DNA of 32,000 nucleotides from the NCBI RefSeq assembly GCF_029945895.1, contig NZ_JAQSDL010000029.1, forward strand, positions 28,260 through 60,259, given 5' to 3'. Both the position numbers and the translations under genes were made by a program. This DNA is from Polaromonas sp. GTDB lineage: Bacteria; Pseudomonadota; Gammaproteobacteria; Burkholderiales; Burkholderiaceae_C. This document shows, piece by piece, positions 6,582 through 32,000 of this stretch; within the stretch, counting starts at the first letter, position 1, and each line of letters starts with the position of its first letter. The notes under the pieces were generated by a model. It saw nothing but the letters and a program-made list of their open reading frames with translations. It ran no database searches and was not told where the DNA came from.

Positions 6582-6609
6582 TTATGGTTTCTTGTGAGGA
6601 AATGATGTG

Positions 6610-8590: not shown

Positions 8591-8607
8591 AAAATCCGGT
8601 GACCGAT

Positions 8608-8625
8608 CCTGCCCGTCAGGGCAGG
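8608..8625. terminator. Hairpin CCTGCCC-GTCA-GGGCAGG between convergent genes
   Basis: Perfect 7-bp stem with 4-nt loop between stops at 8590 (+) and 8645 (-). No clear U-tract. Confidence 0.35.
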
Positions 8626-8644
8626 GGGTGGCGCACAACCAGCC

Positions 8645-10615: not shown

Positions 10616-10724
10616 GCCTGAATCCTATCCGAACGTCGTGTTGGAGTCCAGCGGCCCAGTCTCCGCGCATCGTTTCTTCTCCGTAACGCTACGCAGCCAG
10701 AAAGCACAGAAAGGCGGTCCATCC

Positions 10725-11396: not shown

Positions 11397-11473
11397 TTCC
11401 GCTTGCCGGGATTGCGCGCCAGCGGATGCGTCTTCCCTCTGCTCGGCAATACATTAAAAAGAGGAGACTGATC

Positions 11474-13111: not shown

Positions 13112-13137
13112 ACCAACCCCAACCCCTGAACCCTGTT

Positions 13138-14768: not shown

Positions 14769-14805
14769 AACAGCGTCTTCGTGCGCCTTCTGAGTGTCTG
14801 AAGGC

Positions 14806-17481: not shown

Positions 17482-17492
17482 TGGGGCTTGCT

Positions 17493-17525
17493 TTTGCGGC
17501 ATTCATTGAATATGTTTACCGCAAA
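17493..17525. terminator. Weak hairpin TTTGCGG-N19-CCGCAAA between convergent regulator and ligase genes
   Basis: 7-bp inverted repeat read from the sequence. The large loop makes it a poor intrinsic terminator. Confidence 0.2.
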
Positions 17526-17529
17526 TCTT

Positions 17530-19170
17530 TTAGACCCCCGGCAGCCGGTGGTCCTTGAACTGCTCACGCAACTGGTTCTTCAGCATCTTGCCAGTGGCGC
17601 CGATGGGGATGGCCTCGACGAACACCACGTCGTCAGGCACCCACCAGGAGGCGACCTTGCCTTTGTAGTGTTCAATCAGCGCTTCGCGGGTGACCTCCGC
17701 GCCCGGCTTGCGCACTACCACCAGCAAGGGCCGTTCATCCCATTTCGGGTGCGGCACGGCGATGGCCGCTGCCATCGCCACCGCCGGGTGCGCCATGGCG
17801 ACGTTTTCCAGGTCGATCGAGCCGATCCACTCGCCGCCGGACTTGATCACGTCCTTGCTGCGATCCGTGATCTGCATGTAGCCGTCGGCGTCGATCGTGG
17901 CCACGTCGCCGGTGGGGAACCACTGCGCGCCGGTCGTGTCGCTCACCAGGGGTTTGGCGCCATCAGGGCCGAAGTAGCTCTGGACTACCCAAGGGCCACG
18001 CACCAGCAGATCGCCCGGCGTCTTGCCGTCCCAGGGGACGTCGGCCCCCTGCGGATCGACGATGCGCATGTCCACGCCGAACACGACCTTGCCTTGCTTG
18101 GCGAGCAGCGCATGCTGTTCGTCCAGTGGCAGGGACAGGTGTTTCTGCTTCAGCCGGCTGACCGTGCCCAGGGGCGACATCTCCGTCATGCCCCAGGCGT
18201 GGATGACTTCAATGCCATGGTTATCTTCAAAGGCTCGCATCATGCTTGGCGGCACGGCCGAGCCACCGATGATGGTGCGCTTCAAGGGGGCGAGGCTGAG
18301 CGCGTTCTGCTCGGCGTGCTGGAGCATGCCGAGCCAGATCGTGGGCACGCCGGCCGCAAACGACACCTGCTCGGTGGTAATCAGCTCGTGCAGCGACTTG
18401 CCGTCCAGCGCGGCCCCCGGCAGCACCAGCTTGGCGCCGACCATCGCGCAACTGTAGGGCAGGCCCCAGGCATTGGCGTGAAACATCGGCACCACCGGCA
18501 TCACGCAGTCGCGCGATGAGATGGAGATCGCGTCCGGCATGAGCGAGGCATAGGTGTGCAGCATCGTCGAGCGATGGCTGTAGAGAACGCCCTTGGGGTT
18601 GCCGGTGGTACCCGAGGTGTAGCACAGCGACGAGGCGGTGTTCTCGTCGAAAGTGGGCCATGCGAAGTCGGGCTTGTGCGCCGAGATCAGGTCTTCGTAG
18701 CACAGCAGATTGGACAACTTGCTCGCCGGCATCTTGTCCTTGTCGATCATCGCGACAAAGTGACGTACCGTCTTGCAGCGCCCCGCCACGGCCTCGACCA
18801 GGGGCAGGAAGGTCAGGTCAAAGAACAGCACCTGATCCTCGGCATGGTCGAGGATGTAGAGCAACTGGTCCGGGTGCAGGCGCGGGTTGAGGGTGTGCAG
18901 CACCGAACCGCTGCCGGAGGCGGCGAAATACAGTTCCAGGTGCCGGTAGCCGTTCCAGGCCAGCGTGGCGACGCGCTGCGAAGCTTTCACACCGAGATTG
19001 CCGAGCGCATGGGCCATCTGGCGCGCGCGGTCGTGCAATTGCGCATAGGTGATGCGGTGGATGTCGCCTTCGACGCGGCGCGAGACGATGGGCACATCGC
19101 CGCTATGGCGTGCCGCATGGGTGATGAGTGAGGAAATGAGCAGGGGGGCGCTCATCATTTGACCGTTCAT
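17530..19170 (-). CDS. Medium/long-chain fatty-acid--CoA ligase (AlkK-like)
   Basis: AAGGAG RBS precedes ATG 19170. [39 protein letters not shown]. Last gene of the minus-strand ALDH-GMC-ligase operon. Confidence 0.88.
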
Positions 19171-19279
19171 GAAGTCTCCTTGGATTTTTTGGTTAAGGCT
19201 AAATCCGGCCACTGGCCGGGTATCGTGATGAGAGGTGCCATAGCGCCTCTGCGGGGTGGTGACTTTTATGCGAATGAAT

Positions 19280-20878
19280 CTACTGAAGTTTGTGGCTTGA
19301 CAGGATGGCCCGCGCACACTTCTCGCCGATCACCATGCAAGGGGCATTGGTGTTGCCGCCGATAACCGTAGGCATGATCGATGCGTCGGCGACACGCAGG
19401 CCCGAAAGCCCGTGCACCCGCAACTGCGCATCGACCACGGCCATGTCGTCATTGCCCATCTTGCAACTGCCGACCGGGTGGTAAATGGTTTCCGCACTGC
19501 GCCGGATGTAGGCCCGCAGATCCTTGTCGCTGCGCACGCCGGCACCCGGCGCCACTTCGCCGCCATTGATGTCGTGGAAGGCCTTGGCCTCAAAGATGCG
19601 TCGTGCAAGTTTCAGGCCACGCAGCATCTCGTCCCAGTCGTCGGCATGGCTCAGGTAGTTGGGCTGAATCATCGGTGCGGCCAGCGGATCGGCGCTTTTG
19701 AGGCCGATGAAACCACGGCTTTGGGGGCGCAACTGGCACATGTGCAAGGTGGCGCCGTAGCCGGGGGCCAGGTCACGGCCATGGTTTCGCAGGTAGGTCG
19801 GCAGGAAGTGAAATTGCACCTCTGGCAGCGCCGATTGTGGCGAGAGCCTGGCGAAACCCCCTGTCTCGGCCACGTTGCTGGACAGGAAGCCTTCGCGCTT
19901 GCGCCAGTATTGCCAGAGCCCGGCAAGTGCTTTCGGCAGGAAACCAGGCGCGACACCAATCGCCTGCTTGCTGCGGTCGCGGATCATCACCGTCACGTCG
20001 AGATGGTCCTGCAGGTTCTGGCCCACGCCCTGCAGGTCGGCGACCAGGTCGATGCCCAGGCCCGTCAATTGCTGCCTGGGTCCGACACCCGACAGCAGCA
20101 GCAGCTGCGGTGAATTGATGGCGCCGCCGCTCAGCACGATTTCACGTTCGGCCTCGATGCGCTGGCGTTCGCCTTTGCGTTCGATCTCGACCCCCACGGC
20201 CTGTTTGCCCGAGAAGAGGATGCGTGTGACATGGGCACCGGTGAGCACGGTCAGGTTCGGCCGGTCCATGACAGGGTGCAGGAAGGCCCGAGCGCTGCTC
20301 CAGCGTTCCCCGTTCTTCTGGGTCACCTGGTGAGGCCCCGCACCTTCCTGTTGCGCGCCGTTGAAGTCCATGTTGCGCGGAATGCCGCATTGCACGGCGG
20401 CGTCGATGAAGCGGCTCGACAACGGGTTGGGCGAGCGTACATCGGCAACGTTCAGTGGTCCATTTGTTCTGTGGTAGGTCGAGACACCGCGCTCGTTATT
20501 CTCATGTTCCATAAAGATCGGCAGCAGATCCTTGTAGGCCCATCCGGCGTTTCCCGCTGCTGCCCATGCGTCGTAATCAGCCTGTTGCCCGCGCATGTAG
20601 ACCATGGCATTGATCGAGCTGCTACCCCCGATTGTTTTTCCCCGTGGCCAGTACAGGCGACGACCTTCGAGTTCGGCTTGTGGTTCGGTGTCGAAATACC
20701 AGTTGTACTTGCGGGTGGCGAGCAAGCCCACGAGGCCCATGGGCGTGCGGATCAGCGGTGAGTCGTCGGACCGTCCCGCTTCGAGCAGGCACACGCGGTT
20801 CGACGGATCCGCGCTCAATCGGTTGGCCAAGACACAGCCGGCCGAACCGGCGCCCACGATGATGTAATCGAATTTCAA
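19280..20878 (-). CDS. GMC-family FAD oxidoreductase (AlkJ / choline-dehydrogenase-like alcohol dehydrogenase)
   Basis: N-terminal FAD fold FDYIIVGAGSAGCVLANRLS, GMC signature GGSSSINAMVYMRG, C-terminal HPVGSCKMG. Confidence 0.9.
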   Translation of the reverse strand: MKFDYIIVGAGSAGCVLANRLSADPSNRVCLLEAGRSDDSPLIRTPMGLVGLLATRKYNWYFDTEPQAELEGRRLYWPRGKTIGGSSSINAMVYMRGQQADYDAWAAAGNAGWAYKDLLPIFMEHENNERGVSTYHRTNGPLNVADVRSPNPLSSRFIDAAVQCGIPRNMDFNGAQQEGAGPHQVTQKNGERWSSARAFLHPVMDRPNLTVLTGAHVTRILFSGKQAVGVEIERKGERQRIEAEREIVLSGGAINSPQLLLLSGVGPRQQLTGLGIDLVADLQGVGQNLQDHLDVTVMIRDRSKQAIGVAPGFLPKALAGLWQYWRKREGFLSSNVAETGGFARLSPQSALPEVQFHFLPTYLRNHGRDLAPGYGATLHMCQLRPQSRGFIGLKSADPLAAPMIQPNYLSHADDWDEMLRGLKLARRIFEAKAFHDINGGEVAPGAGVRSDKDLRAYIRRSAETIYHPVGSCKMGNDDMAVVDAQLRVHGLSGLRVADASIMPTVIGGNTNAPCMVIGEKCARAILSSHKLQ

Positions 20879-20944: not shown

Positions 20945-22396
20945 TCAGACCAGACGCAGCGTCCAGTTGATCAGCCGTCGCGACAGATGGGTGTAGGGCG
21001 GGTAGAAGGTGGAGGCCAGCAACAGCCAGGTCTTGACGACCGCGCGCTCATGGCTGAAGGCCTTGAACCCGTAGATCCCGTGTGCGCTGCCCAAGCCGGA
21101 GTTGTTGACACCGCCAAAGGGCAGGCGGCCATGCAGGAACTGCACGACGCTGTGGTTGACGCAGGCACCGCCCGAACTCGTCTCGCGCAGCACCTTGTCG
21201 GCGACCTTGTGGTTCTTCGTCCAGATGTACAGCGCGAGCGGCTTGGGCTGGTCGTTGATCTTGGTTATGACTTCGTCGAGATCGCGGTAAGCAATGACGG
21301 GCAGCAACGGGCCGAAAATTTCCTCCTGCATGATCTTTGCATCCGGGCTGACGTTGTCGATCAAGGAGGGCGCGACGAACTGGCGATCTGTCTGGTGCTG
21401 GCCACCGGCCAGCAGTCTGGCACCTTTTTCAAGTGCGTCATCCAGCAGTCCGACGATGCGCTTGGCATGGCGCTCATTGACGATGTGCGCCAGGTGAGGG
21501 CTGGTGCGCACGGCATCTCCTTCACCGTAGGCTTTGGCCAGGGCTTGGCGGCAGTGCTCTACAAAAACATCCTTGACCGATTCGTGGACGTAGACGTGAT
21601 CCGGCGCAATACAGGTCTGGCCGCTGTTGGTGCATTTGGACCACATCAGGTTGGCCGCCGCGGCCTTCAGGTCCGCCGTGGCGTCAACGATGGTGGGGCT
21701 CTTGCCGCCCAGCTCCAGGGTCACGCTGGTCAGGTGCTTGGCCGCCGCGGCCATCACCACGCGGCCAATCGCCGGCGAGCCGGTAAAGAAGATGTGATCG
21801 AAGGGCAGATCCAGCAGCGCCTGCGAGACCGACGCGTCGCCCTGGAACAGGGCCACCTCGTCTTCGGGAAACACCTCGCGCACGATCTCCGCCATCAGCG
21901 CCGACAGGTGGGGTGTCATCTCCGAGGGTTTGAGAATGGCCGTGTTGCCGGCGGCGATGGCCGAGATCAGTGGGCCGAAGGTCAGGTTGACGGGATAGTT
22001 CCACGGCGAGATGATCAGGCAGCGGCCCTTGGGCTCGCACTGCACGTAGCTTGACGTGCCAAACATCAGCAGGGTCGGGAAAACCTTGTTCGGCTTCATC
22101 CAGCGGCGCAGATGGCGACGCGCATCGTTGGCTTCGGCCACGATGGGTAAAATTTCGGTCAGGTCGACCTCGGCGGCCGGTTTGCCGAAGTCCAGTGCGC
22201 CAGCGCGCTGAATGTCGGCCTGGCGCGCCAGGACGGCCCGCTTCAGGCGGTCGATCTTGTCGAGCCGCTGCGCGGCGGTTGATTGACGAAGCCGTAAGGC
22301 CGTCTCACGCTGCGCGGCGAAGATGCGGTCTATTTCCGGTTGTCCCGCCGGTTCGTCGGGGTTGACAAGCCGCATGGCATTGGAAGTCACCTTCAT
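20945..22396 (-). CDS. Aldehyde dehydrogenase, class-3/AlkH/CalB-like
   Basis: AGGAGA RBS precedes ATG 22396. Catalytic motifs ELGGKSP and NSGQTCIAPDHVYV. Confidence 0.88.
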   Translation of the reverse strand: MKVTSNAMRLVNPDEPAGQPEIDRIFAAQRETALRLRQSTAAQRLDKIDRLKRAVLARQADIQRAGALDFGKPAAEVDLTEILPIVAEANDARRHLRRWMKPNKVFPTLLMFGTSSYVQCEPKGRCLIISPWNYPVNLTFGPLISAIAAGNTAILKPSEMTPHLSALMAEIVREVFPEDEVALFQGDASVSQALLDLPFDHIFFTGSPAIGRVVMAAAAKHLTSVTLELGGKSPTIVDATADLKAAAANLMWSKCTNSGQTCIAPDHVYVHESVKDVFVEHCRQALAKAYGEGDAVRTSPHLAHIVNERHAKRIVGLLDDALEKGARLLAGGQHQTDRQFVAPSLIDNVSPDAKIMQEEIFGPLLPVIAYRDLDEVITKINDQPKPLALYIWTKNHKVADKVLRETSSGGACVNHSVVQFLHGRLPFGGVNNSGLGSAHGIYGFKAFSHERAVVKTWLLLASTFYPPYTHLSRRLINWTLRLV

Positions 22397-22481
22397 TTCT
22401 GTCTCCTGCATTTTATTTTGGTCTCGTATCACGTCGATTCGAGGTCGAAGTAAGTCTATTGAGATGCGCCATGGAAATCAC

Positions 22482-22497
22482 CCTAACGAAAGTTAGG
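22482..22497. promoter_or_regulatory. Perfect palindrome CCTAAC-GAAA-GTTAGG in the divergent control region
   Basis: Read directly from the sequence. Sits between the ALDH start (22396) and the pmoC start. Candidate operator or RNA hairpin. Confidence 0.25.
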
Positions 22498-22536
22498 TGC
22501 AACGTCGTGTGCTTCGATCTACCATTCTTCGAGTGT

Positions 22537-22551
22537 TGGCGCAAAGCTGGC
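22537..22551 (+). promoter_or_regulatory. Sigma-54-like -24/-12 element TGGCGC-N5-TGGC upstream of pmoC
   Basis: Matches TGGCAC-N5-TTGC at the GG/GC core with correct spacing and 2 flanking mismatches. No enhancer-binding protein gene in the window, so this is weak. Confidence 0.2.
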
Positions 22552-22598
22552 CGAGCCTCTTTCTTGCAAGTGGGTGGAGGCTAAGTGATTACCCTTAA

Positions 22599-22616
22599 TT
22601 CACACGATTCACACGA
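22599..22616 (+). repeat. Tandem direct repeat TTCACACGA x2 abutting the pmoC ribosome-binding site
   Basis: Two exact 9-nt copies, followed directly by AGGAGA (22618-22623). Confidence 0.6.
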
Positions 22617-22630
22617 CAGGAGACATGACA

Positions 22631-23440
22631 ATGAAAACAGTTTCAATTCAAGGTGCCGGGGGCATGCGGGTAGCCGGCGGCGAGGGAAAATCCTCCCGGG
22701 AGAAAATAGGTGCTCCGTGGGCCAAATTCTTTTTGGCGCTGCTTGCGTTCGCGGTGCTCTATACCGGCTATCGCATCTACTCCGAGGCGTCGGCGTTCAC
22801 ATACGGGCTCGACTATTTCAGCCACGAGTTCGATGTTTACTGGATGCGTCTGCTGTACGGACAGTTGCTGCTGATTGGCGCGCTGGGAACCGGGGCTCTG
22901 GTGTATCTATGGCGTACCCGTGAGCGGGATTTTTCCCGGATCGGGCCACGAGAGGAGGTGCGGCGCCTGTTCGTGCTGATGGCGCTCATTTTGCTGTTCG
23001 CCATCATGTTTTATGTGACCGGTTCGATCTACACGGAGGCCGATGCAGCCTGGCACCAGGTGACGATCCGGGATACTGATTTCACCCCCACCCACATTGG
23101 TCTGTTTTATTTCTGCGTGCCCTTGCTGGTGTTTTGGGGCTTCATCTCGTTCGCCTACGCTCACACGCGCATCCCGCTCTTTGGCAATCGCATTTCGCTG
23201 CCGTTCGCGATCATCGTCGCCGGCGCTTTCATGATCATGCCCAATGTGGGATTCAACGAGTGGGGTCACACTTTCTTCTATGCAGAGGAGTTGTTCGCCG
23301 CGCCGATTCACTATGGCTTTGTGTTGCTGGGCTGGTCTACGTTTGCGGCTGGTGGATTGCTCCTGCAGATACTGGGTCGCGTGGCCGAGCTGACGAAGCA
23401 GTCGGTGTCGCCGCAAGCCGAGCTTCAAGCGGCTCACTGA
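22631..23440 (+). CDS. pmoC: Copper membrane monooxygenase subunit C (PmoC/AmoC family)
   Basis: EADAAWHQVTIRDTDFTPTH and NEWGHTFFYAEELFAAPIHYGF reproduce PmoC metal-ligand spacing (D-x3-H-x12-H and N-x3-H-x13-H). Multi-TM protein. ATG 22631 is 7 nt after AGGAGA; ATG 22625 is an alternative. Confidence 0.92.
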   Translation: MKTVSIQGAGGMRVAGGEGKSSREKIGAPWAKFFLALLAFAVLYTGYRIYSEASAFTYGLDYFSHEFDVYWMRLLYGQLLLIGALGTGALVYLWRTRERDFSRIGPREEVRRLFVLMALILLFAIMFYVTGSIYTEADAAWHQVTIRDTDFTPTHIGLFYFCVPLLVFWGFISFAYAHTRIPLFGNRISLPFAIIVAGAFMIMPNVGFNEWGHTFFYAEELFAAPIHYGFVLLGWSTFAAGGLLLQILGRVAELTKQSVSPQAELQAAH

Positions 23441-23526
23441 TACGCCTTTCCGGGTAAATGCATCGGGGCTAGGTCTCGATGACAAGCTGTGCGCTTGACC
23501 TCCCAATTTATTTCTGGAGACTTTGA

Positions 23527-24279
23527 ATGTCCGTTTTGACTCCGGCTGAGGCCGCCTTTAGCCCGCAGGAAGCGGCCCGCGTTGATGCCCAGGTTGACTG
23601 GGTGGTCATTCCGCTCTTTGTGGTGCTTCTGGGGTCCGTATTCGCCTTCCAGTTTGCCTTGCTGGTGGGGGACTGGGATTACTGGATCGATTGGCGGGAC
23701 CGCCGTTATTGGCCGCTGGTCACGCCCTTGGTGCTGGTTATTCTGCCCGGCGTATTTGGATATGCCTTTTGGCATTTGCTGCGCATACCTCTGGGTGCGA
23801 CGCTGAGCATTATCGGGTTGACGCTGACGGGCTGGTTGAGCCGGTACTTGAACTTTCATGAGTTCGCGGGTTTTCCGATGAACATGGTGCTGCCGTCGAC
23901 TTTCATTGGCGTGGGTCTACTGATCGATTGCACCTTGCTGCTTACGCGCAGCTGGTTTTTCACGGGGATTTTTGCTGGCTTTCTTTCGGGGCTGCTTCTG
24001 TACCCAATGAACTGGCCACTGCTGGCTCCGTTCATGGTGCCGGTCGAAATGCACGGCACGCTGATGACGGTGGCGGACGTGATGGGTTTTGAGTACATCC
24101 GCACTGCCATGCCCGAATATGTGCGCATCATCGAGCAGAGTACTTTGAGGACATTCGGCGATGCAGTCACACCGCTGACGGCGGTTTTTGCTGGCTTCCT
24201 GACCATATTGAGCCTCTGGTTCTGGGCCTGGGTTGGCTCACTCGGTGTCAAGGCCGTGTGGCTGCGAAAAGTTGTTTAA
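23527..24279 (+). CDS. pmoA: Copper membrane monooxygenase subunit A (PmoA/AmoA family)
   Basis: Hallmark strings GDWDYWIDWRDRRYWP, PMNMVLPSTFIG, YIRTAMPEYVRIIEQSTLRTFGD. GGAGA RBS. Confidence 0.93.
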   Translation: MSVLTPAEAAFSPQEAARVDAQVDWVVIPLFVVLLGSVFAFQFALLVGDWDYWIDWRDRRYWPLVTPLVLVILPGVFGYAFWHLLRIPLGATLSIIGLTLTGWLSRYLNFHEFAGFPMNMVLPSTFIGVGLLIDCTLLLTRSWFFTGIFAGFLSGLLLYPMNWPLLAPFMVPVEMHGTLMTVADVMGFEYIRTAMPEYVRIIEQSTLRTFGDAVTPLTAVFAGFLTILSLWFWAWVGSLGVKAVWLRKVV

Positions 24280-24289
24280 GGAAGAGGTC

Positions 24290-25531
24290 ATGAATTTCAT
24301 TGCAAAATTGTTCGCAGTCATTCAAGGCCTGATCGTCGTCCTGGTCACGTTTTCGGCAACGCCGACGTATGCCCATGGTGAAAAGGCTCAGCAACCCGCT
24401 TTGCGCATGCGCACCGTGCATTGGTTTGACGTGGATTTGTCGACGCGCAAGCTCGATGTCAACCAGATTCTGGTCGTCAAGGGAACTTTTGTTCCTTCCC
24501 TGTCCTGGCCGGAGCATGTCGCGTCCATCGAGGACACCGCCTATCTCAATGTGGGCGTACCCGGGCCTTCTTTTGTGCGCCTGGACAGCCGCGTCAACGG
24601 TGTGCCCACCATACGCAGTAGTTCGTATAAGCGCGGTGAGCAGTACAACTTCGAGATCACGCTGAAGGCCCGCACACCCGGCCGCTATCACCTGCATCCC
24701 ATCATCAACGTCCAGGATGCCGGGCCGATGATTGGGCCCGGCATCTGGGTCGAGGTCGGGGGCGACCCGGCGGCATTTGACAACAGCATCAAAACCTTGT
24801 TCGGCCAAACCCTTGATTTGGAAACGCACGGCTTTGCCAATGCGGCTTCCTGGTCAGCGGTGTGGGTTGTGCTTGGTTTGGTCTGGTTTGGCTATTGGCT
24901 GACCAAGGTGCCTTTGATCTTGCCGAGGTTCCGGCGTGCCAGCGCGCTGGGTGAGAACGCCGACGACATGATCACCACGCGCGACCGTCAGGCGGCACTG
25001 GTTATCCTGGTGGCTACGCTGATGCTTATCGCTGGCGGGTTTTTCTATGCCACCGAGCGCTGGCCGGTCACGACGCCGCTACAGACCGGCAAGATCAAGA
25101 CGCCGCCCCTGAAGATGGCGCCTTCGCCGGTGTTGGTCACGATGGATGATGCACGCTACCGCATCCCGGGCCGGAGCTTCCGTATCGAGCTCACGGTAAC
25201 CAACAGCGGGAAGAGTCCCGTGAGCGTTGGTGAGTTTGCCTCAGGCGGCCTGCGCTTTATCAATTCCGCGGTGCTGAAGGTCACACCAAAAGACCAGGAC
25301 GATCTGGTCGCGACAGACGCGTTGCGCGTGGAGGGCGGCTCGATCAATCCAGGAGAAACGAAGAAGATCGTGGTCTATGCGGACGATGCGATGTGGGAGA
25401 CGCAGCGCATGACGACGATGATCTCCTCCCCGGATGCGGTGGTGGCCGGCATGCTGTTCTTCTTCGATGCGCAGGGCCGTCGCTATCCAGTAGAGATCAG
25501 CGGACCGATGATCCCTTTGTTCGGGGGGTAA
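24290..25531 (+). CDS. pmoB: Copper membrane monooxygenase subunit B (PmoB/AmoB family)
   Basis: Signal peptide ending TYA|HGEKAQQPALRMRTVHWFD (N-terminal His after cleavage), GRYHLHPIINV HxH motif, two central TM helices, C-terminal cupredoxin-like domain. Confidence 0.92.
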   Translation: MNFIAKLFAVIQGLIVVLVTFSATPTYAHGEKAQQPALRMRTVHWFDVDLSTRKLDVNQILVVKGTFVPSLSWPEHVASIEDTAYLNVGVPGPSFVRLDSRVNGVPTIRSSSYKRGEQYNFEITLKARTPGRYHLHPIINVQDAGPMIGPGIWVEVGGDPAAFDNSIKTLFGQTLDLETHGFANAASWSAVWVVLGLVWFGYWLTKVPLILPRFRRASALGENADDMITTRDRQAALVILVATLMLIAGGFFYATERWPVTTPLQTGKIKTPPLKMAPSPVLVTMDDARYRIPGRSFRIELTVTNSGKSPVSVGEFASGGLRFINSAVLKVTPKDQDDLVATDALRVEGGSINPGETKKIVVYADDAMWETQRMTTMISSPDAVVAGMLFFFDAQGRRYPVEISGPMIPLFGG

Positions 25532-26142
25532 TGGAGATGCGACTGATCCGAACGTTGAGTTCCGCGCTGCTGGCCGTGGCTGCGGTATCGGCATGGGCCC
25601 ATGGCGGGGTCGGCATTGAAGACGACAAGTGCATCCTGCGCATCGGCAGCGACCGGGCCCATTTCGCCGGCTACCAGCCCGAGCACCGTGCCAGTCAGGA
25701 GTTCTGCGAGGACATCCCCGAAGTCGGACGGGCAGTGATCGTGATTGACTTCATCCAGCCCGCGCTGCGCGAACGCGTGGTCGAGTTCCGCATCCTGCGT
25801 GACGCGGACGGGCTGGGTGCCAAGGCGCGCTACGAGGATCTTGGTGACACGGACCAAATCGCGCAGCGGACGATGGTGGCGCTGCCGGCCAAGGTTTATC
25901 CGCGCGGCACGGTCACCCTGGACCACAAGTTCAGCGAGCCCGGCTGGTACATCGGCCTGCTCAGCGCGACCGACCCGGCCAGCGGGAAGACGGAGACCTC
26001 GGTCTTTCCGTTCCGCGTCGGCGTGCGCAACTATTGGAAATACCTGCCATTGCCCTTGTTCTTTATCGGCATGGCCTGGCTCTTGTACCGGCTTACCAGA
26101 CAGCGGCGAAAACCCCCGATCACCGACGTACCTCAAAAGTAG
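25531..26142 (+). CDS. Exported, C-terminally membrane-anchored protein coupled to pmoB (candidate PmoD/AmoD-like accessory protein)
   Basis: ATG overlaps the pmoB stop (TAATG). Signal peptide ...AVSAWA|HGG. About 150-aa periplasmic domain with C34/H44/H52/C59. TM helix YLPLPLFFIGMAWLLY followed by RQRRK. Family assignment not verified. Confidence 0.7.
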   Translation: MEMRLIRTLSSALLAVAAVSAWAHGGVGIEDDKCILRIGSDRAHFAGYQPEHRASQEFCEDIPEVGRAVIVIDFIQPALRERVVEFRILRDADGLGAKARYEDLGDTDQIAQRTMVALPAKVYPRGTVTLDHKFSEPGWYIGLLSATDPASGKTETSVFPFRVGVRNYWKYLPLPLFFIGMAWLLYRLTRQRRKPPITDVPQK

Positions 26143-26165
26143 ACAGCATGAAAAAAGGAGACAAG

Positions 26166-28331
26166 ATGAAAATTTGGATGAACATGGCGGGTAACGCGCG
26201 TCAAGAAAAAACCGCCAACCGACCTGCAATGGCCCTGACATTGGCGGTGGTTTCGCTGCTGGTGATGGCCGCGCCGCCCGTCATGGCCGAGGAGGCCAAG
26301 GGCTCGAAGGCGCACATTGCGGCCGTGACCAGGAAAGTCGACGGCGCCTTCATCCGTGCCAATGAGGCGCGAACGAACGACTGGCCCAGCCACGGCCTGG
26401 ACTATGCCGAGACCCGCTTCAGCAAGCTCCAGCAGATCCATACCGCCAACGTCAAGGATCTCGGCTTGGTCTGGTCCTACAACCTCGAGTCGACGCGCGG
26501 CGTCGAGGCCACGCCGCTGGTGGTGGACGGCGTCATGTATGTCAGCGCCTCCTGGAGCATCGTCCATGCCATTGACGTGCGCAGCGGCAAGAAGATCTGG
26601 ACCTTCGATCCCAAGGTGCCGCGCGAGGCCGCTTACAAGGGCTGCTGTGACGTGGTCAACCGCGGCGTGGCGCTGTATCAGGGCAAGGTCTTCGTCGCCT
26701 CCTACGACGGCCGGCTGATCGCGCTCGATGCGGCCACCGGCAACAAGGTCTGGGAAAAAGACACCATCATCGACCGCAAGTTCAGCTACACGATCACCGG
26801 GGCGCCACGCGTGTTCAAGGGCAAGGTGATCATCGGCAACGGCGGCGCCGAGTACGGCGTGCGCGGCTACATCACGGCCTATGATGCCGCCACCGGCGAC
26901 CAGAAATGGCGCTGGTTCACGGTACCCGGCGACCCGAGCAAACCGTTCGAGGACGAGTCCATGGCCAAGGCCGCCAAGACCTGGGACCCCGCGGGCAAGT
27001 ACTGGGAAGCCGGCGGTGGTGGCACCGCCTGGGACACGCTGACCTTCGATCCCAAACTGAACCTGATGTACGTGGGCGTCGGCAACGGTTCACCCTGGGC
27101 GGCAGCCAAGCGCAGCCCCGCGGGCGGCGATAACCTGTACCTGGGGTCCATCGTCGCGCTCAACCCCGACACCGGCAAGTACGTCTGGCACTACCAGGAA
27201 ACACCCGGCGACAACTGGGACTACACCTCGACCCAGCCGATGATCCTGGCCGACCTGAAGATAGCGGGCAAGCCACGCAAGGTGATCCTGCATGCGCCGA
27301 AGAACGGTTTCTTCTTCGTGATCGACCGCACCAACGGCAAGTTCATCTCGGCGAAGAACTTCGTCGACGTGAACTGGGCCAGCGGCTACGACGCGACGGG
27401 TCGCCCCATCGAGACTGCCGATGCGCGTCCCACGGATCGACCGTACGATGCCATTCCAGGCCCCTACGGCGCGCACAACTGGCACTCCATGTCGTTCAAT
27501 CCACGGACCGGGCTGGTCTACTTGCCTGCGCAAAACATACCCGTCAACATGATGGATGACAAGAACTGGAGCTTCAACTCCAACAAGCCAGGTCAGCCAG
27601 GCTCCGGTACCGGTTGGAATACCGGCAATTACATCAATGCAGTCCCACCAAAAAGCAAGCCGTTTGGCCGACTGATTGCCTGGGATCCGGTACAGCAAAA
27701 AGAAGCATGGCGCCAGGAACAGGTCTCACCGTGGAATGGTGGCACGCTGACCACGGCCGGTAACCTCGTGTTTCAGGGCACGGCGGACGGGCGTTTCATC
27801 GCCTACAACGCCCAAAATGGCGAGAAACTCTGGGAGTCGCCCACGGGGACCGGCGTGGTGGCTGCGCCTATCACCTATCTGGTGGATGGCAAGCAGTACG
27901 TGTCGATTGCCGTGGGATGGGGCGGCAGTTACGGTCAGGATAAGCGGGCCACCGAGCGGCAAGGTCCGGGCACGGTCTACACCTTTGCCGTTGGCGGCAA
28001 AGCGCCCATGCCGGACTTCGTCGCTTACCGGATGGGCGAACTGGTGGCAGGGGTGAAATACGACCCGGCTCACTACGAGGCCGGCACCTTGCTGTATGTC
28101 AGCAATTGCGTTCTCTGCCATGGTGTTCCCGGCGTGGACCGTGGCGGCAACATCCCCAACCTCGGTTACATGAACGCGGCCTTCATCGAAAACCTCGACA
28201 AGTTCATCTTCAAAGGTCCCGCCATGAGCCGGGGCATGCCTGACTTCACGGGCAAGCTGAGCGTGGACGATGTGGAGAAGATCAAGGCCTTCATCCAGGG
28301 AACGGCAGACGCGATACGTCCCAAGAAATGA
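26166..28331 (+). CDS. Quinohemoprotein PQQ-dependent alcohol dehydrogenase (type II ADH with C-terminal cytochrome c)
   Basis: AAGGAG RBS 5 nt before ATG 26166. Signal peptide, vicinal disulfide GCCDVVNRG, propeller W-motifs, WDYT active-site segment, heme motif CVLCH (28107-28121). Starts at most 23 nt after the preceding stop. Confidence 0.9.
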   Translation: MKIWMNMAGNARQEKTANRPAMALTLAVVSLLVMAAPPVMAEEAKGSKAHIAAVTRKVDGAFIRANEARTNDWPSHGLDYAETRFSKLQQIHTANVKDLGLVWSYNLESTRGVEATPLVVDGVMYVSASWSIVHAIDVRSGKKIWTFDPKVPREAAYKGCCDVVNRGVALYQGKVFVASYDGRLIALDAATGNKVWEKDTIIDRKFSYTITGAPRVFKGKVIIGNGGAEYGVRGYITAYDAATGDQKWRWFTVPGDPSKPFEDESMAKAAKTWDPAGKYWEAGGGGTAWDTLTFDPKLNLMYVGVGNGSPWAAAKRSPAGGDNLYLGSIVALNPDTGKYVWHYQETPGDNWDYTSTQPMILADLKIAGKPRKVILHAPKNGFFFVIDRTNGKFISAKNFVDVNWASGYDATGRPIETADARPTDRPYDAIPGPYGAHNWHSMSFNPRTGLVYLPAQNIPVNMMDDKNWSFNSNKPGQPGSGTGWNTGNYINAVPPKSKPFGRLIAWDPVQQKEAWRQEQVSPWNGGTLTTAGNLVFQGTADGRFIAYNAQNGEKLWESPTGTGVVAAPITYLVDGKQYVSIAVGWGGSYGQDKRATERQGPGTVYTFAVGGKAPMPDFVAYRMGELVAGVKYDPAHYEAGTLLYVSNCVLCHGVPGVDRGGNIPNLGYMNAAFIENLDKFIFKGPAMSRGMPDFTGKLSVDDVEKIKAFIQGTADAIRPKK

Positions 28332-28477
28332 CCGATATATGACCGATGGCGCGAAGGAGTGCGCCGGGGAGTTGTGCGCGGCTGCCTGCCGTGCAGCCGG
28401 CGACGGGCCGACGGTTCTTGCAGGGCTTCGCGCCCGGTCGGCCAGATTCTATGGCTTACGGATATGAGGAAAAAACC

Positions 28478-28951
28478 ATGCAATCGAAAAAAGTTTCCGC
28501 TGTCTGTATCGCGGTCCTGATGGGTGCGCTGGCGGGACCCGTCGCCTTGGCGACCGAGCACGCGCACGCCGCATCCAAGAGCGGCGCGGCGAAGGACATG
28601 AAGGTACTGCCGCCGCTGCGCATCGTGTCGCCGCTTGCCGGGGCGCAGGTCGGGCCCAACATTGAGGTCGAGTTCGAGACCGATGCGGAGCTGGCGAACA
28701 TGACGATGAGCGCCAAGTCCATTGGCGTTCATCTGCATGTCGGTATCGACGGTACGTCTCTGATGCCGATGATGGCGGACTTGGTCCGCGTGGGCAAGAA
28801 TCGTTACCGCTACGCCTTTGACCTGCCCGCAGCCCCTGGGCCGCGCGTCATTAGCGTGTACTGGTCCGATGCATCCCACAAGACCATCGAATTTTCGGTA
28901 CAGAAGGTGAGTGTGGTGGTCGTTTCGAATCAGGGTAAGGTCAAACCTTGA
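28478..28951 (+). CDS. Exported His/Met-rich protein (DUF4399-like; candidate periplasmic copper binder)
   Basis: Signal peptide ...PVALA|TEHAHAAS. LRIVSPLAGAQVGPNIEVEF...IGVHLHVGIDGTSLMPMM resembles the DUF4399 pattern from memory. Function unproven. Confidence 0.65.
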   Translation: MQSKKVSAVCIAVLMGALAGPVALATEHAHAASKSGAAKDMKVLPPLRIVSPLAGAQVGPNIEVEFETDAELANMTMSAKSIGVHLHVGIDGTSLMPMMADLVRVGKNRYRYAFDLPAAPGPRVISVYWSDASHKTIEFSVQKVSVVVVSNQGKVKP

Positions 28952-28998
28952 ACGTACAGTCAAGTCGTCCTTGATGCCAATGAATAGAAGTGCAAGCA

Positions 28999-29015
28999 GC
29001 TATTGAAGTAATAGC
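28999..29015. promoter_or_regulatory. Inverted repeat GCTATT-N5-AATAGC upstream of the DUF2147/copCD genes
   Basis: Read from the sequence, about 50 bp upstream of ATG 29068 in an AT-richer spacer. Confidence 0.15.
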
Positions 29016-29067
29016 ATCATCGGCCCATGAAGTCGTTGCTCGCCTACCCACAACGAAGGAAAGTCTC

Positions 29068-29523
29068 ATGACAATCGGAAAGACATTGAAACACGTACTC
29101 GCCATCGCCTCCTTTGCCTGGGCAGCCGGTCCTGCTTTTGCGCAGGACACGCCCGTCGGGCTCTGGAAGACGATTGACGACGACGGCAAGACGGTGAAAA
29201 CCTTGATTCGCATCAGCGAATCGGCTGGCGTGCTCAGTGGCGTGATCGAGAAACTCCTCGATCCCAAGGCGGCGACCGTCTGCACGAAATGCACCGACGA
29301 CCGCAAGGACAAGCCGGTGGTCGGGATGACGATTATTCGCGGCATCAAACACAATACCGCTGACGCTGCGCTGTGGGACGGCGGCGAGGTGCTCGATCCG
29401 GAGAATGGGTCGACCTACCGGCTGCGTCTGCGGCCCGCCGACGGGGGCAAGAAACTCGAGGTTCGAGGTTTCATCGGCGTGCCGATGATAGGGCGCTCGC
29501 AAACCTGGGTGCGCGCCGAGTGA
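29068..29523 (+). CDS. DUF2147 domain exported protein
   Basis: Signal peptide ...GPAFA|QDTPVGLWKTIDDDGK, CTKC pair, KDKPVVGM, W-GG-VLDPENGSTY, LEVRGF...GRSQTWVR. This is the typical DUF2147 layout. Confidence 0.8.
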   Translation: MTIGKTLKHVLAIASFAWAAGPAFAQDTPVGLWKTIDDDGKTVKTLIRISESAGVLSGVIEKLLDPKAATVCTKCTDDRKDKPVVGMTIIRGIKHNTADAALWDGGEVLDPENGSTYRLRLRPADGGKKLEVRGFIGVPMIGRSQTWVRAE

Positions 29524-29537
29524 ACGCCCGGCGCAAG

Positions 29538-29906
29538 ATGGTTTCGTGGCTCGTCGCGCTGCTGGCCATGGCCGCCACTGGCACGGCGCTGGCGCATGCC
29601 GCGCTGGTCAAGTCCGAACCGGCACGGCGGGCGACGCTGTCCAAACCGCCGCCGCAGGTCAGGCTGTGGTTCAACGAGCGGCTGGAGCCCGAGTACGCGA
29701 CGATCAGCGTGATCAGGGAAGGTGCCGGCCCGGTCACGACCCAGAAGGCCCGGGTTGACAAGGACGACCCCAAACTGCTGGCGCTGGAATTGCCCATGCT
29801 CAGCCCGGGTACCTATACCGTGAAATACCGGGTGCTCTCGGTCGATGGCCATACGGTCGATTACGGTTATACCTTCACCGTGAAGGCCGAGGGCGCCGGG
29901 AAGTAA
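29538..29906 (+). CDS. copC: CopC periplasmic copper-binding protein, Cu(II)-site-only type
   Basis: Signal peptide ...GTALA|HAALVKSEP (mature N-terminal His), D-x-H (SVDGHTV) near the C-terminus, no Met-rich Cu(I) loop. Confidence 0.88.
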   Translation: MVSWLVALLAMAATGTALAHAALVKSEPARRATLSKPPPQVRLWFNERLEPEYATISVIREGAGPVTTQKARVDKDDPKLLALELPMLSPGTYTVKYRVLSVDGHTVDYGYTFTVKAEGAGK

Positions 29907-32000
29907 ATGGAATTCCTCGGCACGGCGCTGCGCTGGCTGCAATTGACCAGCGGCCTGGTGCTGTTGGGCAGCTTTGCCCTGCTGCTGCTCGCGGGTCCTG
30001 GCCGAAGCCCGGATGCCGCGCGCTGGCGTGGCGCGGTCTTTGCCGCCGCGCCATGGCTGGTGGCACTGCTGCTGGCCACGGCGGCAGGTCTGTTGATGTT
30101 GCAGGCGGCTTCGGTCAGCGGCCGCGGCGAGGCGGCCTTTGAGTGGTCCGAATGGGTCAGGCTGCTGGAGCGAACGCGCTACGGCGCGGTCTGGCAGGTG
30201 CGGCAGGCGGCAGCGCTGGTTCTGCTGCTGTTGTTGCTGAGCCGAGGGCCTCTGAGCGCGCGGTTCGGCGAGCGCGTCGTCTGTGTGGCGCTGCTCACCC
30301 TGGCGCTGGGAATCAACGCGGCCTCGGTATTTACCGGGCACGGCGCTGCCACAGAACCGCTTTGGCTCGCAGGTGCCGGCCATGCGGTGCATTTGCTGGC
30401 GGCGGGCGCTTGGGCCGGAGGGTTGCCGGCGCTGGCCTACGGACTTCACCTGGCGGCAAGAGGCCGGGATCCGCCGTTCCGGCAGATGTTCCTCGGCGTG
30501 TTGCGCCGCTTCTCTGTGCTTGCGACGGTTTGCGTTGCTCTCATCGCTGCATCCGGCACCCTCATCGCGTACCTGCAGTTCGGCGCGCCGATCCGCTGGC
30601 CCGCACGGACAGACGACATCTTCGGCGGTCTGATGACGGTGCTCGAACGCAGCCTGGCCCCGCTGCTCAGTACATCGTTCGGTCTGCAGGTGTTGGCCAA
30701 AATGGTTCTGCTGGTGCCGGTGCTGCTTGTTGCAGCGCGGGTTCGCTGGGTCTGGATGCCGCGTATGGGCAAGGTGGCATTTGAGCAGGGTCTTGCGTGG
30801 CAAGGCGCGGCCGGTCTGGTCCGGGTGGAACTGGGCGTTGTGCTGCTGATCCTGCTCTTCGCAGCCGGTCTGACAGGTACGCTGCCCGCGGCCCATGCGC
30901 AGATGGTGTGGCCGCTGCCGTTTCGTCTGTCGCTCGCGGCCACCTGGGACAAACCGGGGGGGGTGAACACGGTCGTGGGTGCGTCGTTGCTGGCTATGGG
31001 CGGACTGGCTTGGCTGGTGCATGCCCTTGTGTCAGGGCCCCGCGCCGACGCGGCGCAGGGCGGGCGCCGGATCCGTTTGGGTGCTGCCGTGCTGATGACC
31101 CTCTCGGGGCTGGTCATCGTTCTATACGCGCTCTCGGTGGACGCCTATCCCGACACCTATCGGCGCACGGATGTCAGTTACAACGCGGTGTCGGTCACGC
31201 GCGGGGCGGCGCTGTATTCCCAGCACTGCGTGTCCTGTCACGGTCCGGGTGGCAAGGGGGACGGTCCGCTGGCCACCCGCTTGCCCACCAGGCCCGCCGA
31301 CCTCACCGAGCCGCATACCGCGTTGCACACGGCGGGCGATCTCTTTTGGTGGCTCACCCACGGCAAGCCGAACACCGCCATGCCCGGCTTTGCGCAGGAA
31401 ATGACCGAGGAGGAACGCTGGGACATGGTGAACTTCCTGCGCGCCTTCTCCGCCGGTTTTCAGGCCCGCATCCTGACACCGCAGGTGGTGCCCGGGCGGC
31501 CCTGGCTCGGTCCGCCCGATTTCGATTTTGTGACCCGGTCGGGACTGGCCGCGGCGCTCAAGGCGTACAGGGAGCGCAAGTCCGTGCTGCTGGTCTTCTA
31601 CTCGCAGCCCTTCTCGGCGCAACGCCTGGCCGAACTGGCGCGTGTCTATCCGCGCCTGAAATCCAGCGGCGCCGAGGTGATCGCCATTGCGTTGCCAGGC
31701 ACCCCGCCCTTGCAATCGCAGCCGTTCCCCGTTGTCACCGATGGGGCGCAGGAGGCGGCGACCGCCTACCTGCTGTTGCGGCGCACCTTGAGCGACCCCG
31801 GCAAGACCATCCTGGGGGAAGCTCCGTCTCACATGGAATTCCTGCTCGACCGGTTCGGCTATGTGCGAGCGCGCTGGCTGCCGCAGGACGAGGAGGGCGC
31901 CGGTGAAGGTTGGCGCGACACGCAGTTTCTGCTCGACCAAATCGAACGCATCCACCGCGAGCCGCGCATCCTGCCGCCGCCCGATGATCATGTGCATTGA
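29907..32000 (+). CDS. copD: CopD-family membrane protein fused to a cytochrome c domain and a Cys-less peroxiredoxin/thioredoxin-like domain
   Basis: ATG immediately follows the copC TAA. N-terminal multi-TM CopD region, CVSCH heme motif (31227-31241) with AMPGF Met ligand, C-terminal AhpC/TSA-like pattern KSVLLVFYSQPFSAQR...GAEVIAIAL with no Cys. Stop at 31998-32000. Confidence 0.85.
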   Translation: MEFLGTALRWLQLTSGLVLLGSFALLLLAGPGRSPDAARWRGAVFAAAPWLVALLLATAAGLLMLQAASVSGRGEAAFEWSEWVRLLERTRYGAVWQVRQAAALVLLLLLLSRGPLSARFGERVVCVALLTLALGINAASVFTGHGAATEPLWLAGAGHAVHLLAAGAWAGGLPALAYGLHLAARGRDPPFRQMFLGVLRRFSVLATVCVALIAASGTLIAYLQFGAPIRWPARTDDIFGGLMTVLERSLAPLLSTSFGLQVLAKMVLLVPVLLVAARVRWVWMPRMGKVAFEQGLAWQGAAGLVRVELGVVLLILLFAAGLTGTLPAAHAQMVWPLPFRLSLAATWDKPGGVNTVVGASLLAMGGLAWLVHALVSGPRADAAQGGRRIRLGAAVLMTLSGLVIVLYALSVDAYPDTYRRTDVSYNAVSVTRGAALYSQHCVSCHGPGGKGDGPLATRLPTRPADLTEPHTALHTAGDLFWWLTHGKPNTAMPGFAQEMTEEERWDMVNFLRAFSAGFQARILTPQVVPGRPWLGPPDFDFVTRSGLAAALKAYRERKSVLLVFYSQPFSAQRLAELARVYPRLKSSGAEVIAIALPGTPPLQSQPFPVVTDGAQEAATAYLLLRRTLSDPGKTILGEAPSHMEFLLDRFGYVRARWLPQDEEGAGEGWRDTQFLLDQIERIHREPRILPPPDDHVH

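Follow-up and report, generated by a model that had tools for sequence, protein, structure and literature searches.

Organization and relatives of a copper membrane monooxygenase gene cluster with linked copC and copD genes in Polaromonas sp.

Genes of the cluster

The gene cluster described here was found in Polaromonas sp. (assembly GCF_029945895.1, contig NZ_JAQSDL010000029.1, positions 28,260 to 60,259; this whole stretch of 32,000 nucleotides is referred to as the window, and positions are counted from its first letter). On the basis of Pfam and NCBIfam matches and of translated open reading frames (ORFs), nine tightly packed genes, all on the plus strand, occupy positions 22625-32000: xmoC, xmoA and xmoB for the subunits of a copper membrane monooxygenase (CuMMO), followed by xmoD, a quinohemoprotein alcohol dehydrogenase gene, the genes of two exported proteins, copC and copD. 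All nine had been placed in this way in a preliminary description made from the sequence of the window, which had also pointed to the likeness of the arrangement to the amo loci of betaproteobacterial ammonia oxidizers.

The first gene, xmoC (22625-23440, 271 aa; Pfam AmoC, E 3.5e-73), has AGGAG 5' of its ATG and is followed by xmoA (23527-24279, 250 aa; AMO, E 6e-76) and xmoB (24290-25531, 413 aa, with a signal peptide; Monooxygenase_B, E 1.3e-123). With Pfam scores of 246 (AmoC), 256 (AMO) and 413 bits (Monooxygenase_B), which are far over the cut-offs, all three products are members of the CuMMO family. Copper ligands were read from the translations at the positions known from particulate methane monooxygenase (pMMO) structures: in XmoB the mature N-terminal His (in HGEK, following YA) and the H-x-H of RYHLHP, and in XmoC the CuC ligands D-x3-H-x12-H (DAAWH...TH) and the CuD ligands N-x3-H-x13-H (NEWGH...IH).

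The next gene, xmoD (25531-26142), was called orf4 and was described as coupled to its upstream neighbor, which agrees with the finding that the xmoB stop TAA and the xmoD ATG share one base (TAATG). XmoD has no Pfam match, but phmmer against the Protein Data Bank (PDB) aligned its residues 33-164 with the cupredoxin PmoD (6CPD, E 1.3e-19), and its build (signal peptide, periplasmic domain, C-terminal transmembrane helix) is that of the PmoD/AmoD family. It is 33-37% identical to nitrifier AmoD (orf5) and 23-28% identical to AmoE (orf4); the gene is thus a true PmoD/AmoD homologue, as proposed, but it is nearer to orf5 than to the orf4 after which it was named. Residues H24-G-G-V, C34, H44 and C59 are invariant in the XmoD alignment, and the mature H-G-G N-terminus and both Cys are common to XmoD and nitrifier AmoD/AmoE, a conservation that hints at a copper site at the N-terminal His. 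The motif C34-x9-H44...C59 (C-ILRIGSDRA-H) has Arg and Ala where Met would stand, and therefore differs from that of the CuA-forming PmoD subclass (Cx7MxHxnC; Met49 in 6CPD numbering). By this motif XmoD is assigned to the Cx9HxnC class, whose members bound copper and gave no CuA signal (Fisher et al. 2018, PMC6189053). The XmoD proteins of Polaromonas and of the Nevskiales clade also carry a 12-residue insertion (GLGAKARYEDLG), which is found neither in nitrifier AmoD/AmoE nor in the corresponding proteins of two further CuMMO lineages (L164 and L165, see below).

The dehydrogenase gene (26166-28331; Pfam PQQ 5.5e-81, Cytochrome_CBB3 4e-10) starts 23 nt past the xmoD stop and is preceded by AGGAG. 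Its product consists of a pyrroloquinoline quinone (PQQ) beta-propeller and a C-terminal cytochrome c domain with the heme motif CVLCH, and is thereby a type II quinohemoprotein alcohol dehydrogenase. The best PDB match was the Comamonas testosteroni quinohemoprotein ethanol dehydrogenase (1KB0, 1257 bits, residues 47-721), followed by 1KV9 (709 bits) and 1YIQ (663 bits); the NCBIfam model TIGR03075 scored 682 bits. The window and the Comamonas enzymes have the same architecture over nearly their full length, but the window gene lies within a CuMMO operon. A D-Y-T motif in the translation presumably marks a Ca-type rather than a lanthanide-type PQQ enzyme.

The two exported proteins that had been reported between the dehydrogenase and copC are indeed present, and could now be typed as an Ig-fold protein (unk157, 28478-28951) and a DUF2147 protein (29068-29523; Pfam E 1.3e-28). 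The former was characterized by alignment, profile search and an AlphaFold2 model. No Pfam or NCBIfam match was obtained for unk157, DUF4399 (PF14347) staying under its curated threshold, and only 35 homologues were found in the word index. A His-rich N-terminus follows the signal peptide, and M-T-M, H-L-H, D, M and H are invariant in the alignment. In the model the core is an Ig-like beta-sandwich (predicted local distance difference test, pLDDT, >90), for which the PDB offered generic Ig-like matches only, with CopC at rank 31. When the profile was run against 1.84 billion representative proteins, 179 clusters were collected; the remote members include multi-repeat DUF4399 proteins, and some remote relatives match DUF4399 weakly. 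Judged from these profile matches, unk157 is a distant relative of DUF4399 that the curated threshold places outside the family. In four proteins of about 240-260 aa (P0306, P0311, P0314 and P0323), and partially in P0300, an N-terminal CopC domain is fused to a C-terminal unk157-like domain. These fusions are evidence that unk157 works with CopC, and make it a candidate periplasmic copper-binding partner of that protein. Identification of unk157 as PCuAC was rejected, since there was no DUF461 match in Pfam, and hhalign revealed no homology to the small copCD-flanking genes of Nitrosospira (163 aa), of an organism with Sox genes (162 aa) or of L165 (133 aa).

CopC (29538-29906; Pfam CopC, E 7.3e-24) is a periplasmic Cu(II)-binding protein. 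Its best PDB match was 5ICU (E 9e-16), the CopC of Methylosinus trichosporium, with His1 and the SxDGH motif aligned. The mature N-terminus is a His (in HAALV, following LA), VDGH stands in place of the SDGH of 5ICU, and H20, D103 and H105 are invariant in the CopC alignment. No Met-rich Cu(I) loop was seen by eye in the translation. With its N-terminal His, its D-x-H and no Met-rich site the protein looks like a member of the Cu(II)-only class, which is reportedly designated C0-1.

The last gene, copD (29907-32000), begins at the base right after the copC stop, and its own stop ends on the final base of the window. Thus copC and copD do close the cluster as had been described, but "CopD" is in fact a fusion of three domains encoded by a single ORF of 697 aa (Pfam CopD, Cytochrom_C and AhpC-TSA): a CopD membrane domain is followed by two extra helices, a class I cytochrome c, a thioredoxin-fold domain devoid of Cys, and a C-terminal H-V-H. 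The Pfam CopD score of 35.8 (cut-off 32.1), together with the conserved His residues, identifies the membrane domain. The score for the NCBIfam CopD equivalog stayed below its cut-off (84.8 against 195), which is not surprising in a fusion this divergent, and the cut-off of the CopC equivalog was not reached either. Among 13 CopD fusions, including those of Nitrosospira and Methylomirabilota, H145, H162, the heme motif C441xxCH (C441, C444, H445), H642, E644, D648 and the terminal H-V-H (H695, H697) are invariant. The AlphaFold2 model (pLDDT 84.8) consists of a helical membrane domain, the class I cytochrome c and a thioredoxin-like fold, and Foldseek matched it to cytochrome c552 and to ResA, TlpA and peroxiredoxin folds. 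From the model, the C-terminal domain is predicted to be a Cys-less thioredoxin fold with conserved His. A Sco-like copper chaperone was also considered for this domain and was rejected on account of the ResA/TlpA/peroxiredoxin fold and the lack of Cys.

Linkage to copC and copD in other genomes

Related loci were collected by a scan with the XmoD alignment, one genome being taken per species, and the resulting 80 loci were searched by tblastn with the window proteins; further CuMMO lineages (L164, L165/L169 and L166) were reached via CopD homologues. Every one of the 80 loci has xmoA and xmoB immediately ahead of xmoD, and 67 of them also have xmoC. In 21 of the 80, copC and a fused copD, usually with unk157, follow directly after xmoD; these loci belong to Solimonas, Panacagrimonas, Nevskia, Sinimarinibacterium, Stagnimonas, Polycyclovorans, Aquabacterium and three further metagenome-assembled genomes (MAGs). 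Altogether, the copCD cassette is linked to CuMMO genes in 26 of the 80 xmoD loci, and the linkage extends over five or more CuMMO lineages. The arrangement is not due to chance, since the same linkage occurs in dozens of independent genomes, and the comparison of the 80 loci bore out the supposition that the synteny is conserved and not unique to this genome.

Two loci of the Nevskiales type have two tandem copies of xmoC ahead of xmoAB (L009, 5869-7603, and L011, 3028-4802). No xmoC match was detected upstream of xmoA in L038, L039, L045, L049, L052, L055, L064, L067 and L074 (several Candidatus Macondimonas MAGs), and in six of these nine loci a distant PQQ-propeller match (24-25% identity) lies about 2.4 kb upstream instead.

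A protein of "unclassified Polaromonas" has the same sequence as the window XmoD (100% identity). On scaffold 7 of Polaromonas sp. AER18D-145 both XmoD and XmoB are 100% and CopD is 97-99% identical to the window proteins. The complete Polaromonas-type order, xmoCABD-dehydrogenase-unk157-DUF2147-copC-copD, was found in L001 and L003, and L004 has the same order minus unk157. Among the 80 loci, tblastn matches to the DUF2147 gene were restricted to these three, and this gene is an accessory of Polaromonas-type loci. In two Burkholderiales MAGs (L006 and L007) the order is unk157-copC-copD, a gene of a MalT-type regulator, xmoCABD and the dehydrogenase gene, i.e. the cassette is upstream of xmoC. 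The distant, mostly marine gammaproteobacterial loci consist of xmoCABD alone.

A second CuMMO lineage of the Comamonadaceae is represented by L164 (positions 1-17991), in which a MimR-like regulator gene, xmoCAB and a PmoD-like gene are followed by genes for a hydrolase, an aldehyde dehydrogenase and an acetyl-CoA hydrolase, then by an unk157-like gene, copC and copD, and finally by genes for an esterase, a Baeyer-Villiger-type monooxygenase, a short-chain dehydrogenase/reductase and a zinc-dependent alcohol dehydrogenase. The regulator and the downstream genes suggest subterminal metabolism of propane or acetone. The order in L165 and L169 is xmoCAB-D-copC-copD.

These comparisons bear on the origin of the dehydrogenase gene, which the preliminary description had regarded as inserted. 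It lies between xmoD and copC only in Comamonadaceae-type loci (in L164 other genes are inserted there), and the Nevskiales dehydrogenases, which are about 50% identical, are encoded nearby on the opposite strand or are absent. Since copC directly follows the PmoD gene in the Nevskiales-type loci and in L165/L169, L081, L166 and L167, insertion is the parsimonious explanation. We therefore regard the dehydrogenase gene, whose product is very similar to the Comamonas enzyme, as most likely inserted between two modules in the Comamonadaceae specifically, and the other genes at this place in L164 as inserted likewise.

With the order xmoCABD-copC-copD-unk157, the Nevskiales clusters (Solimonas, Panacagrimonas, Nevskia and Sinimarinibacterium; also Aquabacterium) hold the closest relatives of CAB (48-67% identity) and of XmoD (47-55%). 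They have the XmoD insertion, the fused CopD and unk157 in common with the window, but differ from it in that copC directly follows xmoD, unk157 follows copD, and DUF2147 is missing. Their CopC and CopD, at 35-48% identity, are no closer to those of the window than are the proteins from nitrifiers or from loci without CuMMO genes nearby.

In beta-nitrifier operons amoCAB-amoE-amoD is followed by copC and copD, and in alphaproteobacterial methanotrophs the order is pmoCAB-pmoD-copC-copD-pCuAC (Fisher et al. 2018, PMC6189053). The likeness of the window cluster to the former, claimed in the preliminary description, is real. A Nitrosospira contig (L081) carries the last 30 codons of amoB, then amoE, amoD, copC, a copD of 692 codons and a gene of 163 codons, and its CopD (P0197, 692 aa) is the same fusion of CopD, cytochrome c and thioredoxin-like domains, 37% identical over the full length. 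On another, Nitrosomonas-like nitrifier contig (L166, 5760-14615) three tandem PmoD paralogues are followed by copC, copD, an IS1595 transposase gene and amoCAB, and three PmoD paralogues also precede copC-copD in the Nitrosomonas-like L167 (7631-12016), where no amoCAB was found within 7.6 kb upstream.

What the window has in common with the nitrifier clusters (amoCABED-copCD of Nitrosomonas and Nitrosospira) is thus the CAB order, a PmoD-family gene right after B, and then copC and a fusion-type copD downstream on the same strand. It differs from them in several respects. The window has a single, AmoD-type PmoD gene, not the tandem AmoE-AmoD pair of the beta-nitrifier layout (two copies in L081, three in L166 and L167), and three genes (dehydrogenase, unk157 and DUF2147) intervene between xmoD and copC. 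The Cx9H motif of XmoD, which has no Met, contrasts with Cx7MxH in nitrifier AmoE and Cx8MH in AmoD (PMC6189053). The window CAB proteins are 34-40% identical to nitrifier CAB (L166), the nitrifier 163-aa gene after copD is unrelated to unk157, and the context is that of alkane catabolism rather than of hydroxylamine oxidation. Compared with the pmo operon of alphaproteobacterial methanotrophs, the window has the same functional set in the same order, with a small periplasmic copper-type protein encoded after or before copCD. That protein is DUF4399-like in the window and PCuAC in the methanotrophs, and the in-operon PmoD of the latter has the CuA-forming Cx7MxHxnC motif, which XmoD lacks.

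The known xmoCABD clusters of Polaromonas and Rhodoferax (Rochman et al. 2020, as cited in PMC8630023 and PMC11283641) come from the same genera and have the same CABD core as the window, and amo/pmo operons that extend to pmoD and copCD are likewise already known. The layout is an ordinary variant of such extended operons. Its resemblance to that of nitrifiers is explained by the repeated presence, in CuMMO operons of Proteobacteria, of a PmoD gene and of this CopC/CopD-cytochrome cassette.

Divergence of the CABD and copper genes

Percent identities to the Polaromonas (window) locus were determined for XmoA, XmoB, XmoC and XmoD and, in the same loci, for CopC, CopD and unk157. In L006 the values (in this order) were 76, 69, 67 and 62 for the monooxygenase set, and 70, 52 and 50 for the copper set. 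The Nevskiales loci gave 64-67, 60-64, 48-57 and 47-55, with 35-48, 35-43 and 37-45 for the copper set, and L164 gave 37, 35, 39 and 32, with 66, 62 and 54. For L165 (34, 39, 38 and 34) and for the nitrifier L166 (40, 37, 34 and 34), in both of which unk157 had no value, CopC and CopD were 55 and 45, and 48 and 39, respectively. Values for Nitrosospira L081 were obtained for XmoD (36), CopC (51) and CopD (39), and those for cassettes without a CuMMO gene in the available flanks were 44 for CopC (L082/L083) and 39-41 for CopD (L082/L083 and L085). The nearest relatives of the window copC, copD and unk157 are those of L164, whose CuMMO is only about 35-39% identical.

Independent alignments showed the same inversion of ranks. 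For XmoB, identity to the window was 64% in Solimonas, 39% in L165, 37% in the nitrifier and 34% in L164, whereas for CopC it was 65% in L164, 56% in L165, 48-50% in nitrifiers and 43% in Solimonas. Seen from Solimonas, the CopD of Aquabacterium was 51% identical, the Comamonadaceae types and L165 39-41%, and the nitrifier proteins and those without CuMMO genes nearby 34-36%. These identities suggest that XmoD co-diverges with CAB, and that CopC, CopD and unk157 diverge together as a separate group with another history.

Differences in gene content point in the same direction. The locus of Rhodoferax ferrireducens OTU1 (L002) is collinear with the Polaromonas locus (97% identity for XmoA and 92% for the TetR encoded downstream), but DNA alignment of L002 (11841-13040) with L001 (12779-17204) showed a cleanly bounded indel, about 3.6 kb long, that comprises exactly unk157-DUF2147-copC-copD, which L002 does not have. 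Within the region of the thioesterase gene, L002 has about 480 nt that are not present in L001. A minus-strand ORF of 154 aa in L002 was considered as a counterpart of the L001 thioesterase and was rejected, the DNA alignment explaining the region instead.

Fused copD genes without a CuMMO gene in the available flanks were found in L082/L083, L085 and L168, an adjacent copC only in L082/L083. An organism with Sox genes has such a copD together with copC. In a Methylomirabilota MAG the fused copD stands without a neighboring copC, and no copC was found on the metagenome contig L085. A metagenome scan with the CopD alignment returned mostly the generic cytochrome c pattern CHGxxG[RKH]GDG, and the relevant hits (L084-L087) showed no CuMMO genes on their short contigs.

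The GC content is 56-58% over xmoCAB (22001-25000) and 67-68% over copD (30001-32000), that of the whole window being about 63%, and AT skew is strongly negative over xmoA. The GC contrast fits separate histories of the two modules, but the composition of membrane-protein genes may contribute to it.

The preliminary description had considered the layout consistent with a shared ancestral copper-supply cassette adapted to organic substrates. In its strict form this would mean that CAB-orf4-copCD was inherited as one block from an ancestor common with the beta-nitrifiers, and that the dehydrogenase is the sole change. The same kinds of genes in the same order in Nitrosospira, with the same unusual three-domain CopD, speak for such a block, and within the Nevskiales-type loci, including Aquabacterium L022, the whole cluster does look co-inherited or co-transferred (Solimonas-Aquabacterium CopD 51%). 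Against such a block, the loci rank differently by their CAB/D and by their CopC/CopD/unk157 similarities, with inversions of order. The indel of the cassette in Rhodoferax, its relocation in L006/L007, the fused copD genes without CuMMO genes in the flanks, and the low identity of the window CAB to that of L166 likewise speak against it. We regard a single inherited block as unlikely. The part of the proposal that holds is that orf4 tracks CAB; CopC, CopD and unk157 do not, and in other loci the cassette is missing, is placed elsewhere, or (as the fused copD) stands apart from CuMMO genes. The proposal is thus supported in part, and these comparisons favor an association of cassette and CuMMO that is recurrent and modular, and not a single co-inherited block.

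The occurrence of fused copD without nearby CuMMO genes (with copC beside it in L082/L083) could also mean that copCD is a general determinant of copper resistance or homeostasis, which merely neighbors the monooxygenase genes and has no functional link to them. The dispensability of the cassette in the Rhodoferax locus and the unreached NCBIfam cut-offs for CopC and CopD are in line with this explanation. Recurrent CuMMO linkage, in at least five lineages, is not, and no copA or copB resistance genes were found in the gene annotation of the window. In addition, CopC looks Cu(II)-only and has 5ICU as its best match, and in-operon copCD and pmoD have been tied to copper-dependent CuMMO function (PMC6189053). 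A mere neighborhood therefore appears quite improbable.

Proposed role of the cluster

We consider it probable that the window cluster is a modular operon for oxidation of short-chain alkanes in Polaromonas, with a copper cassette separable from xmoCABD. The genes upstream of the cluster are relevant to this reading. A divergent aldehyde dehydrogenase gene (20945-22432, minus strand; Pfam Aldedh, E 7e-104), a GMC oxidoreductase gene (19280-20878, minus strand; GMC_oxred_N and GMC_oxred_C) and an acyl-CoA synthetase gene (17530-19317, minus strand; AMP-binding, E 7e-77) precede xmoC, together with the gene of a MalT/LuxR-type regulator (14794-17481, plus strand; TPR_MalT, GerE and AAA_16). The last is a candidate regulator of the cluster, and a homologue of 53% identity is encoded between copD and xmoC in L006.

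Positions 1-14400 of the window are devoted to fatty-acid and aromatic catabolic functions, with genes for a metallo-beta-lactamase-fold protein, an enoyl-CoA hydratase, a beta-carbonic anhydrase, acyl-CoA dehydrogenases, a LysR regulator, a LigB-type dioxygenase, two AMP-binding ligases, a nitroreductase and a thiolase-like protein. Past the point that corresponds to the window end, L001 (16510-19995) has a 4HBT thioesterase gene (minus strand) and genes for a TetR regulator, a B12-binding subunit and a large subunit of the methylmalonyl-CoA-mutase family. The B12-binding and mutase genes may encode an acyl-CoA mutase tied to C4 metabolism.

The alcohol and aldehyde dehydrogenases and the acyl-CoA context point to terminal oxidation of a short alkane and not to nitrification. 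Polaromonas and Rhodoferax with xmoCABD are reportedly alkane users, growth being supported by ethane and propane but by neither methane nor ammonia. The carriers of CuMMO genes of unknown function that Awala et al. (2021, PMC8630023) list include Polaromonas, Rhodoferax and Solimonas aquatica. If the enzyme were a true ammonia monooxygenase (AMO) and the organism a cryptic nitrifier, the nitrifier-like layout would be accounted for, and so would the score of XmoB, which passes the NCBIfam equivalog AmoB_BACT (527, cut-off 336). However, XmoA (AmoA_BACT, 262 against 290) and XmoC (AmoC_BACT, 277 against 319) remain under the AMO cut-offs. In the PDB, XmoB scored about equally with Methylococcus PmoB (356 bits) and AmoB (9LEG, 329 bits), whereas the AmoB of nitrifier L166 is of the AMO type, with 534 bits against AmoB and 367 against PmoB. 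The neighboring genes, as noted, are those of alcohol, aldehyde and acyl-CoA metabolism, and no genes for hao, cytochrome c554 or cytochrome cM552 were found in the gene annotation of the 32-kb window. Ammonia oxidation is hence very improbable.

In the modular alkane-oxidation operon that we favor, XmoCAB would hydroxylate a short alkane. XmoD, membrane-anchored and translationally coupled to XmoB, would support the enzyme in a copper-dependent manner like PmoD in Methylosinus, where loss of PmoD led to a copper-dependent growth defect (PMC6189053). The quinohemoprotein dehydrogenase would then oxidize the alcohol in the periplasm, and the aldehyde dehydrogenase and the acyl-CoA synthetase would bring the product into central metabolism. 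The last four genes would constitute a copper-acquisition cassette, a separable unit whose gain, loss, relocation and exchange would not depend on xmoCABD. CopC could capture periplasmic Cu(II) and probably has the DUF4399-like protein as its partner; the two may exchange the metal, in parallel to what is described below for Bacillus. The CopD membrane domain would then move the copper. The fused heme is a plausible copper reductant, and the Cys-less thioredoxin-fold domain with the terminal H-V-H a plausible hand-off site for metallating the monooxygenase.

CopCD-type proteins have been proposed as copper importers, copper exchange between YcnI and YcnJ(CopC) has been described in Bacillus, and the site of Cu(II) reduction during CopCD import has been posed as an open question (PMC12362106). 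The window cassette resembles YcnJ-YcnI of B. subtilis and YobA-YebZ-YebY of E. coli, for which an import role has been proposed, in that its CopC-type site for Cu(II) includes an N-terminal His brace and its CopD domain is paired with an accessory extracytoplasmic copper-binding protein (PMC12362106, PMC8689200). In contrast to these import systems, the CopD of the window has a c-type heme and a Cys-less thioredoxin fold in place of YtkA, and the accessory protein is DUF4399-like, not DUF1775 or DUF2511.

Several points weigh against the scheme of an alkane-oxidation operon with a separable copper cassette. The substrate is read from gene context, and co-transcription from the packing of the genes; a promoter and terminator scan of positions 22000-32000 gave counts not above those of shuffled sequence. 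A redox role of XmoD is uncertain, since it lacks the Met ligand of the CuA-forming PmoDs. The cassette is absent from the close Rhodoferax locus and from most distant xmoCABD loci, and is therefore not indispensable in cis. Finally, the incongruence of CABD and cassette is deduced from pairwise identities, although the rank-order inversions are large.

Two further suggestions go beyond this scheme. The cassette may be a dedicated, portable copper-metallation unit in which the fused heme is the missing cupric reductase and the DUF4399-like protein a new CopC-linked chaperone, a proposal that we put forward as tentative and on the doubtful side. If it is true, the fused heme would settle the question, mentioned above, of the site of Cu(II) reduction in CopCD import. 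The dehydrogenase, for its part, could return alcohol-derived electrons to the monooxygenase via XmoD. Electron supply by such "direct coupling" is an idea that has been debated for pMMO, and the embedded dehydrogenase would then be a hard-wired version of it.

As far as limited literature searches can tell, four features may not have been reported before: a quinohemoprotein dehydrogenase gene placed inside such an operon, the widespread fusion of CopD with a cytochrome c and a thioredoxin fold that ends in H-V-H, a DUF4399-like candidate partner of CopC, and the evidence for exchange of the cassette independently of CABD. There is also a practical caution. Because XmoB exceeds the AmoB equivalog threshold, such loci may be mis-annotated or mis-scored as nitrification genes in metagenome surveys, and CuMMO loci in an alkane context could be counted as ammonia monooxygenase.

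With regard to the copper and electron supply of CuMMOs and to the function of PmoD/AmoD, the cluster described here and its relatives point to two separate dependencies, a PmoD gene welded to CAB and a plug-in CopC/CopD-cytochrome cassette that is common with nitrifiers. The conserved CopD fusion and the small unannotated family of unk157 are candidates for copper reduction and chaperoning, and Polaromonas and Solimonas are tractable heterotrophs in which knockouts of copCD, of the DUF4399-like gene and of xmoD could be made.

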